Origin: Planctomycetota bacterium
GTDB taxonomy: Bacteria > Planctomycetota > B15-G4 > SIAN01
Direction: 5' to 3'
Assembly (NCBI GenBank): GCA_031409275.1
Contig: JANNXA010000016.1
Span: 128,001-192,000, forward strand
DNA length: 64,000 nucleotides
A program made the position numbers and the translations under genes. The notes under the pieces are model-generated. The model saw only the letters and a list, made by a program, of their open reading frames with translations, was not told where the DNA came from and searched no databases. Positions 39,154 through 45,147 of this stretch are shown piece by piece (the first letter of the stretch is position 1; each line of letters starts with the position of its first letter).

Positions 39154-41027
39154 GCGGCGCGCGCGGGCCGGCCGTGGCGTGCGCGCTCCTCGTCGCGCTG
39201 CTGGTCGGCGCAGCCACCGCCTTGCGCATCTCGATCACCCACGCGCAGCCCGGCTGGGATCGCACCTCGCCGGTCGGCCTGCTGAAGAGCGATCCGGCGC
39301 TCCTCTATTGGTTCACCGAACGCCACGCTGCAGATGCCAGCGCATCGAACGACGACCTCGCCGCGACCACCTCGGTGCAGTGGCCCGACCCCATCGATGC
39401 GCGCGTCGAGTTCCCGCAACTGCAGATGCAACTCGCGGCGATGACGTGGCGGTGGTTTGGCGCCGGGATGCCGCTGCACGAGTGGTGCGTGCTGCTCTTC
39501 TCGCTGCTCGCCGCGACCGCGCTTTGGGGCGTCTTCGGCCTCGCGCACGAGCTGACCGGGCGTCGCGACCTGGCACTGGCCGCGACCGCCGCCGCCTTCC
39601 TGCTGCCGGCGACGTGGCGCACCGCGAGCTTCGTGCTGCTGGGAGAGGACGTCGCGCTGCCGGCCCTGGCGTTCCACTTCTGGCTCGCAGCGCGCGCCGC
39701 CCGATTGCGTACGCCGGCCGCCTTCCTGCTGGCGGGGCTGCCGTTGGCCATCGCCATGGCGGCCTGGCACGCCACCGGGTTCTTCGTCGCCATCGAAGCC
39801 GGCGCCTTCTTCCTTTGGTACCTGCGCAGCGGAGCCAACCCCTTCTCGGTGGCGCGCGCGTGGCTCGTGCTGCTGCCCTTCGCGCTTGCCTGCGCAGTCG
39901 AGCCGATGCTTCGTGGCAAGCTGCAACTCCTCTCGCTGCCGATGCAGATCGCGCTGGCGCTGCTGCTGATGGCGGCGATCGAGTCGCGGCGAAAGCTGGC
40001 CTTTGCAACACGGATCGGCGCCGCGCTCGCGCTGGTGGCGGCGGGCGCCGGTCTCGCCTGGCTCGCGGCGCGCCTGATGGGCGGCGGCATCGGCGACTAC
40101 TCGCACGTGTTCCGGCTGCTGCTCTGCAAGCTGCGCTACCTCGGCGAGTTCCCCGCCGATCCCAACGAACTGCCCTTCGAGGTCCGCATCCTCTGGCAGG
40201 GTCCCTTCGACACCACACAACTCGGCGCGCTGCTGAAGAACCTCTCGGCTCCGCTCTTCGTCGGCCTGCTCGGCGTCGCGTTCGCGCTGCCGGCATGGCG
40301 ACGTGGCACCACGGTCGAGGCGGTCGAGCGCGCGCGGGCCGTGCTGGCGCCCGCCGTGCTGGTGGCGCTGCTGGCGTCGTGGCTCATCCAGCGCACGCTC
40401 GTGCTTTCGGCACTGCTCTTCCCGGTCGCCGCCGTAATCGCGATCGAGACGCTCGCCTCGTGCGCTGCGGTCGCGAATTGCCGCTTCGTGCGGGGGGGTC
40501 TCGTGGCGCTGCTGCTGCTGGTGCCGGCGGCGCAATTCCCCGAGTTCGTCCGTTTCGTCGAGCAGAAGAACCGCTGGTACGAGCCGCGCCACAGCGCCGA
40601 GATCCGCGCGGCGGTGGAAGTGATCTCGAAGCTCGTGCCGCCGGGCGAGGCGGTGGCCAGCGACGAGATCAACTCGACCGCGATGCTGGCCCACACCGGC
40701 CACCCGATCCTGGTGCAGCCGAAGTACGAGTCGACGGCGGCGCGCGAACGGCTCGAGGAGTACCGCACCGCAGCGACGCGCGGCACGCCGGCCGAGCTCG
40801 CCGACTTCCTGCGCCGCCACCGATGCCGCTATCTGCTATTCGACTGGTTCCAGCTGTTCGCGACGCGCTACCAGGCGGGGCTGCGTTACGACAGCAACGA
40901 GATGGACGGCGACAGCGCGCTCGCGATCACCTACCAGACGCCAGCGGCGCTTCCCGGGTTCAAGCTGCTCTGGCGCAGCGGCGGGCCGCGCGACGGAATG
41001 CGTCTCTACGTGCTCGAATCACCCTGA
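39150..41027 (+). CDS. GT-C fold membrane glycosyltransferase, DPY19-like
   Basis: About 11-13 TMs plus a C-terminal soluble domain; [44 protein letters not shown]. Confidence 0.7.
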
Positions 41028-41512
41028 CGGAAGCGGTCGAGCACTTTCTGGTTCTGCGCGAGGAACGCCTCGGCCCAGTGGTAGCGATCGAGCAACCCGG
41101 CGGTGTCGCGGCGCAGCATGGTGAATGCGGCGTAGATCGCCTCGATCGTGGCGAGCCCGTCATCGGGATCGGTGAGCTTCTTCGACATGCGCGGATAGGC
41201 GCTGACCAGCGGCGGCAGCGAGCGCACCGGCAGCTCGGCGTAGAGGCGTTCCATTCGCGGCGCCAGGCGCCACGTCGAGTCGATCACCAGCAGCCCCGCC
41301 TCCGCGTCCGCGACCGAGAGCTGCGGCCCGCCGATTCCCAACCGGACGTAGGCGTCGAGCGGCTCGCTGCCGCGCTGCGGATAGGGCCAGAAGCAGAACT
41401 CCCGATTCGCGCGGAGCGGTTCGACCGAGCACTTGCGGCGATTCTCGCGCGGATGGACCACGATGATGGTGGGAGGGTGGTTCACGCGGCGCGGCGCGTT
41501 CTCGACGTTCAT
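41006..41512 (-). CDS. DUF367/Tsr3-like aminocarboxypropyltransferase family protein
   Basis: [46 protein letters not shown]. Confidence 0.75.
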
Positions 41513-42147
41513 CGCGAACGCTCGACTGCGACCGCGCCGTTCCACTCGCCGTCGCTCCAGAGTCCCTCGTTGCCGGCGCGAGCGGCTGACTCGGCCGCAC
41601 GAAACGCGTCCGGGAAACGACCGGGACCGTACTTGTCGAAAAAGCGCGAGTAGCCCGCTCGCACCATCGCGAGATTCACGCAGCGACCGTCCAGCAGCAC
41701 GTAGGCCAGCAGGCGACCGTACTCGTCGCGCTTCGCGACATCGGGCTGCTCGAAGATCAATTGCACCTCGCGGCCGGTCACCAGTGCGACGAGCGCCGCT
41801 GTCGCGCGCTCGTAGCCGGGAGCATCGCGTTCAGGCGTGTTGATGTTCAGCAGCCGGACCTTCTCCCGCGGAGTGATCGAGCCGACCAGCTCGACGTGCA
41901 GTGTGTCGCCGTCGACGACTTTCACGACCGGGCCGGAAAGCGGCCGTTCGCCCGATTCGAGCGTGAGCTGGTCGTTCGCCGACCGGCCGACCGCGGCCGC
42001 GACCGGGGCGCGAGCGGGTTCCGTTCCACCCTCGGGGGCGGTCGAGCATCGCTGCGACTGCTGCCAAAGCAGCAGCAACACGACCACGATCAACGCCGGC
42101 ACCCCCCCGCGCCGCCGCCGGCGCGGCCCGCCCCACCGCATCGCCAT
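41509..42147 (-). CDS. Thermonuclease (SNase) family protein with N-terminal anchor
   Basis: [35 protein letters not shown]. Confidence 0.9.
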
Positions 42148-42266
42148 TCCCCGCTCCGCACACCACCAAACCCGCCGCCACGGCGCGCCACCGTATCATT
42201 CGCGCCTCGTTCCGCCGCTCCCGCGCGATGCCCGCGCCGCGGCCACTCAGTCGTGAGGAGGAAGTG

Positions 42267-43286
42267 ATGTTCGCAGCGATGGTGTTGGCGGCGTCGGCGG
42301 CTCTCGCCGGCGGCGACGACAAGGTTCCCGACTTCGGTGCCGTCGAGTGGTGGAACTCGATGCCGTTGACGACCGGACGCCTGAAGGGGCGCGCCATCTT
42401 CGTCGAGTCGTTCCGCACCTGGTGAGGCCCTTGCACCGGACAGCTCCCCCACTTGACGGCGCTTCACGAGAAGTTCCGCAAGAAGGGCGTGCTGGTCGTC
42501 GGCGTGTCCGACGAGACGCATGAACTCATCGACGAGTACGTGAAGAAGCACGCGATCGCCTTCCCGATCGCGCGGATCGACGAGAAGGGCGGCTTCGAGG
42601 CGGCGATCGGCGTCCAGGGCTTCCCGAGCGCGGCGTTGATCGGCGCGGACGGCAAGCTGATCTGGACCGGCCATCCGGCCGAGGTCGACGCCATGCTCGA
42701 CAAGGCGGCGAAGGCCTCGAAGATGACGCCGCTCCTGCCGGCGGCGTGCAGCGCCGCGGAGAAGCTGCTGAACGACGGCAAGAGCGGCCTCGCCTGGGCC
42801 GAGCTCGAAAAGGTCGCCACCGCCGGCACGTTGCAGGGCGACGACCTGAAGTCGGTGACCGACCTGATCGCCTACTTCGAGAAGGACGCCACGGCGCTCT
42901 GGAAGGAGGCCGAGGCGGCCGTCACCGCCAAGGACTGGATGAAGGCGGCGAGCGTTTGCGAGCGCCTGGTCCCGTACGCCGGCAAGGAGCCGGGTGATCT
43001 GGGCAAGGCGAAGCTCGCGGAGCTGCGAGCCGACCCGGCGCTGGTGAAGGAGATCGACGGCGCCAAACAGAACGCCACCGGAGCCGAGTTCGAGAAGGAG
43101 CTCGAGTTCAAGGAGGCGCAGAAGATCTACAAGCAGGTGGTCGCCAAGTTCGCCGGCAGCGAAGCGGCGAAGCAGGCGCAGAAGCGGCTCGACGTGATCA
43201 AGACGGACGGGCTGCTGAACATGGACAAGAACTGCGAGCTGTGCCGCGGGGGCAACCGCCCGTGCTCGCGACACGCGAAGGGCTGA
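42267..43286 (+). CDS. Secreted TlpA/redoxin-family protein with UxxC motif (probable selenoprotein; in-frame TGA at 42423-42425)
   Basis: GAGGAG RBS and signal peptide; FRTW-TGA-GPC continues in frame into the rest of the thioredoxin fold (VVGVSDE, GFPSAALI). Confidence 0.8.
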
Positions 43287-43432
43287 CGCCCGACGACGAC
43301 CATTCGACCGATCGAAGTTCAGGGACCCGTCGCCGCTCGTCGGTGGCGGGTCCCGTTCGTTCTGTCAGGCGCTCTAGCACCCCGCGCCGGTGGCGAACTC
43401 CGCGCCGGCGGCGCACGGGGACGCCGGTGGCG

Positions 43433-43628
43433 TGCGCACCGGTGGCGGGGATGTTTCCACCACTGCGCACCGGTGGTGCGCACCGGTGGCGGGGATGTTT
43501 CCACCACCGCAGAAATCTCGCCTTGCCCAGCGAGCGGCGCCGTTGACAGGCGCGACGGTTCATCGACCTCCGTAATCGCCGGGGAGCCGGGTGCGGAAAG
43601 GGCGGGAGAAAGATCCCCGCCACCGGTG
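43433..43628. repeat. REP/MITE-like cluster: two direct copies and one inverted copy of CACCGGTGGCGGGGATsTTTC
   Basis: Copies at 43433-43463 and 43477-43507, inverted at 43589-43628; lies between convergent genes. Confidence 0.8.
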
Positions 43629-43634
43629 GTGCAG

Positions 43635-44963
43635 TCAGCTCCGGTAGAGCGATTCGAACTGCTCGGCAATGGTCGCGGCGCTCGGGACCTCCTGCCGCGA
43701 GACCCGGAGGGCCTGCCAGAGACCCGGCTCGTTCACGAAGCGGGCGAGCGCGGCGAGCAGGTCGGCGGCGTCTCCGGGTCGAAACGCGAGGCCGTTGCCG
43801 CGCGCGGCGAGCAGCTCGTCCATGCCACCGTGACCCGCGACGATCACGGGCAATCTCGCGAGCGCGGCCTCATCGAGGGTGATCGGCGCGTTCTCGTACC
43901 AGCGCGACGGGACCACCAGCACGTCGATCGAGCCGAGCACCGCGGCCAGACGCGCGCGCTCGAAGCTGCCGTGGAACGTGATCGCCGAGTGGTGGAAGCG
44001 TGATTCGAGTCGCCGCGCGTAGGCACCGCCATCCCACGGCGACGTGCCATGGATCGCCAGCGTCGCCCTCGCCGGCCCACCGCCAGCGCCATCGATCAAC
44101 CGGCGGAACGCTTCGAGCAGCAGATCGGCGCCCTTCGAAGGCAGCAGCGATCCGACGAAGCCGAAACGCAGCGGTTTGCCAGGTTCCGCGCGCGGCGCGA
44201 GCGCCGCCGCCACTTCCGAAGCGACGCCGTTCGCGATGACGACTCCGCGCTCCATGTGCAGGCCGTGGCGGCGATGTTCGTCGAGCACGAAGCGCGACGG
44301 GGCGGTGATCACGTCCGCACGGCCGAGCTGCGCCAGCATCTCGGCGCTGCGCCGTCGAATGGCGATCGTGCCGAGGTTCTCGGCGAGGTAGCGCGGCAGA
44401 CCGGCGAGCGCCGCGAACGGCTCGCGCGCGAAGCGCTGCAACGCATAGCGCGCCCGCTTCTTGCCGATGCAGCGCGCGCAGCGCTGCGGTTCGATCTCGG
44501 CGCAAAGGTGGCCATCGGGCGTGAAGCGCTGGCCGCGCGCGCAGAGGTGCCAGAAGTCGTGCAGCGTGACGACGACGCGGGCACCGGCCTTTCGAGCCGC
44601 CTCGATCAGGTCGATCGAGAGTCCGAGCGTGTGGTGGAAGTGAACGACGTCGACCCCCGCCGCGAGCTCGCGCTCGAACGCGGCGTGAACGCCCGCATCG
44701 AGATAGGTGCCGCGCAAGGAGGTGGCGCGCTCCGGCAACGTCTTCAGCCGCGTCACCGCGACGCCTTCCACCCGCTCCCGCAGGGTGGCCAGCAACGGCA
44801 GGTCGGGCCAGCCGGTGCGCACGAAGGCACGCACGTCGTGGCCCCGTTCCAACAGCGCGCGCGCCAGCCAGTGGGCAGAGAGCTCGGCGCCGGCGTGCTC
44901 GCGCGGCGGGTACCCGTGCGCGACGACGAGGATGCGCAGCGGCGCGTTCAAGCTCGACTTCAT
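43635..44963 (-). CDS. Glycosyltransferase family 4 (related to 30828-32183)
   Basis: HGYPPREHAGAE, TLHDFWHLC, VPSRWYENAP. Confidence 0.9.
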   Translation of the reverse strand: MKSSLNAPLRILVVAHGYPPREHAGAELSAHWLARALLERGHDVRAFVRTGWPDLPLLATLRERVEGVAVTRLKTLPERATSLRGTYLDAGVHAAFERELAAGVDVVHFHHTLGLSIDLIEAARKAGARVVVTLHDFWHLCARGQRFTPDGHLCAEIEPQRCARCIGKKRARYALQRFAREPFAALAGLPRYLAENLGTIAIRRRSAEMLAQLGRADVITAPSRFVLDEHRRHGLHMERGVVIANGVASEVAAALAPRAEPGKPLRFGFVGSLLPSKGADLLLEAFRRLIDGAGGGPARATLAIHGTSPWDGGAYARRLESRFHHSAITFHGSFERARLAAVLGSIDVLVVPSRWYENAPITLDEAALARLPVIVAGHGGMDELLAARGNGLAFRPGDAADLLAALARFVNEPGLWQALRVSRQEVPSAATIAEQFESLYRS

Positions 44964-45147
44964 CGTCCCCCGATCCATGGAAGAGCGCGGCCATCATGCC
45001 GCGATCGGCCGCGTGGCCGAGCAACCCAACGAAGCGCGAACAGTCGAACAACTCCTTCCCCCGCGCCCTCGCCCGCGCAATCATCGGCCGCTCCGACTGC
45101 CTTCCGGCAGCGCCGGTGCCGTCCATCGATCTGCCGAGGGAACCGAA

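Follow-up and report, generated by a model that had tools for sequence, protein, structure and literature searches.

Within the window, by which is meant the whole 64,000-nucleotide stretch of Planctomycetota DNA analysed, a gene for a redoxin-type protein carries an in-frame UGA that is almost certainly decoded as selenocysteine (Sec), and the signal directing this decoding is likely a SECIS element of long range. In the proposed arrangement the coding sequence just after the UGA would fold out as a spacer, and SelB would bind the G-U loop of a hairpin at +74..+92 (numbered from the U of the UGA, position 42423, as +1). Selenoproteins of the redoxin type are a known kind, and the likely long-range SECIS is the new aspect. 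It is put forward as a candidate class of SECIS supported by covariation, with 52 natural examples (31 genes, and 21 more from a held-out set) and sister genes that switch between near and far forms. Features of the gene are collected in Table 1.

Table 1. Features of the selenoprotein gene and its immediate surroundings (positions in the window)
Feature	Position	Strand	Basis
Shine-Dalgarno-like AGGAGG, 5 nt upstream of ATG	42256..42261	+	sequence
Selenoprotein gene, 339 aa	42267..43286	+	sequence, profile match, homologues, model
Likely signal peptide, residues 1-14, no basic n-region	42267..42308	+	11-residue hydropathy 2.15
Thioredoxin-fold redoxin domain, about residues 17-152	42315..42722	+	Pfam, model, fold search
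In-frame UGA, likely Sec53, position 1 of U-G-P-C	42423..42425	+	homologues, contig coverage, Sec machinery
Predicted spacer, one long irregular stem-loop, +19..+72	42441..42494	+	folding, covariation
Upper part of spacer, 42452-42482, with ACGA tip at 42466-69	within spacer	+	0/5000 synonymous variants as stable
Likely SECIS proper, 7-bp hairpin +74..+80/+86..+92	42496..42514	+	covariation, held-out genes
Loop CGUGU of that hairpin; G 42504 and U 42505 predicted SelB contacts	42503..42507	+	prediction
All-helical C-terminal domain, about residues 153-314, common to the family	42723..43208	+	model
C323-x2-C326-x6-C333-x2-H336 tail (CELC-x6-C-x2-H)	43233..43274	+	motif
Intrinsic-terminator-like hairpin past the true stop	43322..43354	+	1 found against 0.8 +/- 1.0 in shuffles, weak on its own

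Decoding of the in-frame UGA

The gene is a single frame from ATG 42267 to the stop TGA at 43284-86, with one internal TGA, at 42423-25, in the context F-R-T-W-U-G-P-C. Gene calling with translation table 11 yields just a 277-aa fragment starting at TTG 42453, which is also the entry in the protein collection (P0002), and eight close relatives there are likewise cut near the same place, at 253-277 aa. In the original prediction two ORF-track fragments were joined in one frame, with the TGA exactly at the first Cys of the active-site motif, as a hidden selenoprotein with a redoxin (TlpA/ResA-like) fold. That reading is upheld by the 339-aa frame, the confirmed TGA, the Sec machinery and the existence of Cys homologues. 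Misassembly does not account for the TGA, as the contigs of runs X1, X3 and X4 that span it agree without a single difference. The three runs belong to one study, X1 possibly being the source sample, and the TGA is bridged by at least 31 bases in X1 and X4 only. Orthologues in other genomes have TGA at the identical position.

Homologues were sought at the level of the order (42 genomes, with matches in 35) and of the phylum (301 genomes, with matches in 157), and the stronger matches were taken. Of 127 loci, 117 aligned across residue 53 (10 did not), and removal of 2 duplicates left 115 distinct loci; one Sec locus had less than 300 nt of downstream sequence, and 2 loci are missing from alignment A1. 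Position 53 is TGA in 88 of the 115, Cys in 16 and another residue in 11, and among the 101 full-length loci the counts are 80, 10 and 11. Coding is intact to either side of the TGA column, which is conserved over identities of about 22-86%.

All four components of the Sec machinery, selA through selD, were found in this genome (93% complete): selA, selB and selD score above curated cut-offs, and a tRNA-Sec has the anticodon UCA. The SelD gene itself contains an in-frame TGA and a GGU-loop hairpin, and the C-terminus of SelB aligns to the RNA-binding SelB structures 2PLY, 1LVA and 1WSU with SRK(F/Y) kept. Across the order, 40 of 42 genomes yielded selA. Of the two that did not, G034, which is 73% complete, has TGA members of the family, selB and tRNA-Sec, and selD was not found in it. 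The assignment of Sec thus rests on the TGA at a redox Cys, the complete machinery and the alternation of Sec and Cys among homologues.

The distal hairpin and the predicted spacer

The published bSECIS consensus places the apical loop 16-37 nt from the UGA (PMC13188914), and the functional stem-loop of E. coli fdhF covers +15..+31, with G23 contacting SelB (PMC8659212). Exceptions are on record. bSECISearch misses 13% of known selenoprotein genes (PMC12013277), and some genes fail the bSECIS model, from which distinct classes are implied, with none described in the text consulted (PMC13188914). Atypical elements are mentioned, without definition in the parts consulted, in PMC13188914, PMC12013277 and PMC10778597. 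Full-text searches of open articles, with passages of PMC4807772 and PMC9402790 among the text consulted, listed no long-range bacterial SECIS.

A SECIS had originally been proposed close to the UGA, formed by GTGAGGC (42422-28) and GCTTCAC (42461-67) around an apical GGA-CAGC-TCC hairpin. These segments are all present, with the loop 15 nt past the UGA, and the pairing can be drawn on paper but is not favoured on folding. Its probability is 1.5e-5, the lower stem has -9.0 kcal/mol versus -14.1 for a rival stem sharing GCUUCAC, and covariation is absent in 86 Sec genes (278/500 shuffles score as high). The apical hairpin has -2.7 kcal/mol and is gone once the ribosome-covered bases +1..+12 are masked; its loop G is A in an orthologue 86% identical to this gene (L013), and across +10..+30 synonymous variants are as stable in 4607 of 5000 cases. 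Two further points of the original prediction hold. Any SECIS here is indeed non-canonical, as no consensus bSECIS passes in this gene and the likely element is 77 nt away, and the codons called atypical, CCT, GGA and TTG (also CTT), account for 4.1, 8.5, 8.3 and 3.4% of their amino acid genome-wide. The rare TTG and CTT provide pairs U31-A59 and U42-A49 of the spacer stem, not of the SECIS first proposed.

With the published constraints (PMC13188914) coded by us as a filter, 59 of 88 Sec genes pass, as do 10 of 27 non-Sec controls, which marks the filter as permissive. This gene fails, having no passing hairpin within 16-37 nt, and 20 of 20 hand-picked other Sec candidates of the genome pass. 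When the 29 failing genes were compared with synonymous variants in sliding windows, two signals appeared, at +28..+63 and +64..+99. The stem at +30..+60 with the ACGA tip had been considered as the SECIS itself; it was demoted after the signal at +64..+99 and is now read as spacer. Another candidate, a hairpin at +63..+87 with a GUCGU loop, was dropped as it is not retained in L013. The distal element was found post hoc, several windows having been examined beforehand.

At +74..+92 the distal hairpin has 7 bp and a 5-nt loop, and a stability of -10.2 kcal/mol. With at least 6 contiguous pairs it occurs in 24 of the 29 filter-failing Sec genes, where synonymous codons would give 2.2; the five without it are L076, L087, L108, L109 and L046. 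It is present in 5 of 19 Sec genes whose best consensus loop lies at +32-37, in 2 of 40 with a proximal SECIS (0.5 expected) and in 2 of 27 non-Sec (Cys or other) genes (0.4 expected). Among Cys genes, L015 retains hairpin and spacer, and L102 has a hairpin whose loop is without G. The normal SECIS and the distal element are thus used nearly to the exclusion of each other. RNAalifold on the 29 genes returned the distal hairpin alone. In its columns 94% of cells are paired, with 21 double changes and 0/500 shuffles as good, versus 55% paired and 275/500 shuffles in the 40 proximal-SECIS genes.

The changes are those of compensated pairs: 76:90 occurs 14 times as G-C and 10 times as A-U, and 78:88 occurs 16 times as C-G and 10 times as U-A. 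At codon level, among the 31 carriers, ATC goes with GAT in 11, GTT with AAC in 9 and GTC with GAC in 4, and in other genes ATC is accompanied by GAC. Loops are N-G-U-N-N in 31 of 31 carriers, an invariance that is confounded with protein conservation since the loop G-U begins a Val codon; among the ordinary proximal SECIS elements of this genome, too, there are CGUGU and CGUGA loops. In the terms of the bSECIS model the hairpin falls within the 3-9 nt loop, the 4-16 bp stem and the MFE of -7.5 or below, and its CGUGU loop carries a G at one of its two leading positions, mostly followed in the model by G or U. Its 77 nt from UGA to loop lie outside the allowed 16-37. Judged on its sequence, the element agrees with the three testable bSECIS criteria and departs in spacing, and so is bSECIS-like and outside the consensus class. 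In this gene taken singly the signal is less clear: there is a competing fold, the hairpin probability is 1.0, 0.32 or 0.78 according to where the folded segment is cut off, and dinucleotide-shuffle z values are weak for the hairpin (-1.2) and modest for +13..+98 (-2.05).

Between the UGA and this hairpin lies the predicted spacer, which in this gene has -27.1 kcal/mol, 11.2 better than its synonymous variants, with 0/60 as stable; the region +28..+62 is more stable than 5000 of 5000 such variants. Over +13..+73 the 31 carriers gain a mean of 10.7 kcal/mol over synonymous variants, and 28 of them reach p<=0.05; the gain is 2.7 in 57 other Sec genes (16/57 at that level) and 0.85 in 27 non-Sec genes (4/27). 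The base helix of the spacer, 17-26 with 63-72, covaries in the 29-gene set (0/500 shuffles) and at most weakly in the 40 proximal genes (57/500 for pairing, 20/500 for covariation). In 31 of 31 carriers the spacer starts at +14..+19, ends at +71..+73 and abuts the hairpin directly.

A pattern fixing bases only at the amino-acid level (the loop G-U included) was used to scan 401 genomes for held-out genes, and gave 56 matches with TGA, in 53 genomes, and 6 with a Cys codon. Excluded were those that duplicated earlier rows over 93 nt and L164, a short Cys match judged spurious. Among the 25 new distinct TGA genes the hairpin is found in 21 (1.8 expected), and in 15 of the 16 without a consensus SECIS; 6 of the 9 that pass the filter carry the distal hairpin too. 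Of the four hairpin-less genes, three possess a strong proximal hairpin and one shows a single mismatch. Spacer significance is reached by 19 of the 25, and covariation recurs. One gene, L154, has good proximal and distal hairpins and no stable spacer. Of four held-out Cys genes one, L163, has the hairpin (0.3 expected), with a spacer short of significance (p 0.07); no Sec machinery was found above cut-off in its genome.

In a tree built without the residues of the element, carriers fall into four well-supported clades and one lone branch. The carrier label changes 11 times on this tree, and as carriers are related by descent the counts given above overstate independence, at least 5 of the changes being forced. 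The hairpin is broken in sister genes that have a proximal SECIS (L103; L026/L032/L033; L068) or Cys (L053), L015 being the exception. Rfam, over 42000-43600, gave nothing near gathering score, a scan of viral contigs for the element gave 0, and a crude, non-exhaustive scan of 118 coding-like TGA candidates in this genome (G000) gave no convincing second long-range gene.

A proposed long-range SECIS and competing explanations

In the most likely course of events, once the ribosome has arrived at the UGA, 55-60 bases of the coding RNA beyond it would be paired away as spacer, and this fold-out would put the 7-bp G-U-loop hairpin at the mRNA entrance of the ribosome, where SelB-GTP-Sec-tRNA could bind the conventional G82-U83 at an fdhF-like distance. 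We infer such folding in vivo, the binding of G82-U83 by SelB and the geometry. Subtraction of 59 nt (+15..+73) does bring +74 to +15 and G82 to G23 of E. coli fdhF; U83 presumably becomes U24 by the same subtraction. The element is like the consensus bSECIS and fdhF in lying within coding sequence on the 3' side of the UGA, in its 7-bp stem, in its 5-nt loop with G in second place followed by U, and in the presence of a normal SelB. It is unlike the consensus in that the loop is at 77 nt, about twice the limit, with a separately selected stem-loop of about 55 nt in between. With the 3'-UTR SECIS of archaea and eukaryotes it would share action at a distance through mRNA folding, but those have another RNA motif and other factors, whereas here the element is intra-ORF and bacterial in type, and its geometry appears to be fixed by the paired spacer.

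An alternative, to which a small chance is allowed, is that Sec is inserted with SelB reading a nearer loop (the ACGA tip at 40 nt, or GGA-CAGC-UCC), the distal hairpin being accessory. The +30..+60 stem is under strong selection in this gene, with 0/5000 synonymous variants as stable, and covaries in the 29-gene set (0/500), and some of its tips have G in first or second place (GGAA, GGGA, AGGA, AGAA). The tips vary freely, however, and some have no G at all (AUAA, AAUAAA), and at least 7 of 8 pairs are formed in that register in 12 of 29 genes only, compared to 24 of 29 for the distal hairpin. The GGA-CAGC-UCC hairpin is unstable and its G is lost in L013.

It is similarly unlikely that the structure serves mainly to stall the ribosome at the UGA or to regulate expression, for example as a SelB-binding attenuator, with Sec insertion depending weakly on a SECIS. 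Translation could be slowed, or the release factor kept out, by a long stable stem positioned at the mRNA entrance, the Cys gene L015 keeps the whole structure, and a SelB-binding regulatory element is described for the E. coli selAB leader in the text available (PMC13449736). Against such a role, the element and the proximal SECIS are nearly mutually exclusive (24/29 vs 2/40), as substitutes would be, and the register of the element is that of the fdhF SECIS; the Cys-type SelD with a SECIS-like hairpin in the genome of L015 fits recent changes from Sec to Cys that left relics.

Less probable again, and very much so, is that the hairpin has no RNA function and merely follows from the protein motif V/I-G-V-T/S-D/N-E and from common descent. 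The motif can pair with common codons (V-G-V-S-D here by chance in 3%, and up to 47% in some genes), and carriers are grouped on the tree. For an unchanged amino-acid sequence, however, the hairpin was seen 24 times vs 2.2 expected, and 21 vs 1.8 in the held-out genes; GTT, which is rare (3% of Val here), and GAT occur where they restore pairs; motif-compatible genes have the hairpin in 24 of 24 cases without a normal SECIS and in 2 of 5 with one; and the spacer is under independent selection. That the UGA is a real stop (in a pseudogene, a split gene or one restarting at TTG 42453) or encodes Trp or Cys hardly merits consideration, for although databases have the downstream fragment only, TGA is the main stop codon of the genome (1310 of 1656 long ORFs) and no consensus SECIS passes in this gene, the codon is shared by 88 of 115 loci in a single alignment column, across identities of about 22-86% and between intact flanks, with Cys in 16, the Sec machinery is complete, and the read-through model is one domain across the site.

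A long-range SECIS, then, remains the preferred explanation, and it may bear on the protein sequence next to the active site. A TlpA-type Pro stands just after UxxC in 30 of 31 long-range genes versus 34 of 57 other Sec genes, and the gain of the long-range form was likely the freedom to keep this Pro. If the explanation is true, SECIS-based gene finding would change, and the main limit on selenoprotein production in bacteria, namely that the SECIS dictates the residues after Sec, might be eased. A broader proposition, that this is a second bacterial SECIS architecture used by many selenoprotein families, explaining a good part of SECIS-less genes and engineerable for Sec insertion in E. coli with the neighbouring residues left as they are, is tentative, and we would hold it rather more doubtful than not.

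The protein family and its genomic setting

The N-terminal domain scores above cut-off for Redoxin (PF08534, 58.5 vs 26.6 bits) and AhpC-TSA (PF00578, 52.6 vs 26 bits). A structure model computed from 92 sequences (pLDDT 95.6) has a ResA/TlpA-type thioredoxin domain followed by helices, with the read-through protein a single domain spanning the UGA site; a single-sequence fold (pLDDT 49.6), in which the stop codon was taken as an additional Cys, was set aside. Fold search gave Z of 17-18 to chains of the ResA/DsbE/SOQ1 type. The active site is U53-G-P-C56, and Pro120, the conserved Pro opposite this motif, is the sole invariant column among the 92 sequences. No NCBIfam model reached its cut-off (ResA NF002854 63/170, TlpA NF047696 24/230 and WAxxUGC_long NF041054 43/300 bits). 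A hydrophobic N-terminal stretch comparable to that of this gene is found in 98 of 99 full-length homologues, and export of the protein is suggested by this hydrophobic N-terminus. In this gene, as in L008, L013, L016, L022 and L023, the apparent signal peptide begins with the hydrophobic stretch, without a basic n-region.

The product is perhaps a thiol/selenol-disulfide reductase, exported and related in kind to ResA/TlpA, that would receive its electrons from the DsbD of the genome, an assignment that we favour with some reserve. It shares with ResA, TlpA and CcmG(DsbE) the fold (Z 17.7 to ResA 2F9S, 14.0 to TlpA 1JFU), a WxxxC-type active site, the invariant Pro of G-F-P, the hydrophobic N-terminus and a DsbD in the genome. 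It is unlike them in having Sec for the attacking Cys and an extra helical domain, and in its NCBIfam ResA score of 63 against the cut-off of 170; cytochrome c maturation genes were not recognised among the neighbours scanned. UxxC redoxins are themselves already predicted selenoproteins in PMC13188914 (Table 1) and PMC2398784. The present family shares domains, UxxC and Cys homologues with three UxxC selenoproteins of the first, namely Redoxin family protein (PF08534), Prx-like thiol:disulfide oxidoreductase (PF00578) and thiol-disulfide isomerase-like (cd02966), and with Prx-like 3 of the second, and as these are described it is set apart by some 160 aa of helical domain and, in part of its members, by the CxxC-x6-CxxH tail. 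An apparently exported redox family extending across the Planctomycetota is thereby uncovered, of which the entries seen in databases are truncated fragments.

For the helical C-terminal domain no Pfam family, TPR included, was found. Matches to CpoB/YbgF/BamD are weak and below cut-off, and the fold-search lists were filled by the thioredoxin domain, so that "TPR-like", as the helices had been called, is retained as a description of a domain that is helical in the model. It is likely a partner-binding scaffold that would select partners. The tail, for which a Zn site had been suggested, could be either a Zn site or a disulfide; it is present in 9 of 101 full-length homologous loci and in the Cys-type full-length database proteins P0059-P0061. 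One other CxxC-x5-7-CxxH was seen among 4905 GC3-rich ORFs, on contig G000:C22 (minus strand, in an ORF near reverse-strand offset 95497), where it sits directly after an apparent signal peptide, and perhaps the motif moves between exported proteins as a module. In 11 of the 115 family members (as listed, L027, L041, L054-L057, L077, L113, L122, L125 and L126) Ser, Asp, Ile or Lys replaces Sec or Cys and the second Cys is mostly retained; these may be non-catalytic or single-Cys forms.

The likely electron donor, DsbD (L128, G000:C51:106234-109197, minus strand), also appears to be a selenoprotein. It is the only DsbD above cut-off in the genome, and the thioredoxin-like domain at its C-terminus contains an in-frame TGA, in F-T-U-I-N-C, with a proximal SECIS-like hairpin alongside. 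With U-I-N-C in DsbD, it becomes plausible that two steps of an exported reducing chain use Sec. A paralogue of similar layout (G000:C43:52591-53766, minus strand) reads W-G-T-R-U-G-P-C and then helices. It has an ordinary proximal SECIS, with the loop CGUGCC at 20 nt, so that near and far forms appear to coexist under one SelB. Three more genes with W-G-(Y/F)-W-U-G-P-C, on contigs C47, C7 and C9, have GGUC loops at 31 nt.

A further observation concerns genome G014 (loci L015, L053 and L183), in which selA, selB and tRNA-Sec(UCA) are present, yet SelD and both family members have Cys codons. A SECIS-like hairpin follows the Cys-type SelD, and L015 retains the full long-range element. The pattern looks like a recent conversion of Sec to Cys that left relics, a reading that it fits without proving. 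Insertion of Sec at UGC through a variant tRNA was ruled out there by the UCA anticodon of its tRNA-Sec.

No conserved operon was seen around the gene, the flanking ORFs differing, by eye, in distant loci. Neighbours within 41006-42147 (minus strand) and 43635-44978 (minus strand) comprise a divergent staphylococcal-nuclease homologue, a DTW/Ribo_biogen_C-like gene and a convergent GT4 glycosyltransferase; two neighbour references, possibly out of frame, matched no Pfam family. The intergenic sequence at 43380-43640 consists of GC-rich repeats of GCACCGGTGG and GGGGATGTTTCCACCA units with a REP-like look, and part of this region recurs in other contigs of run X1.
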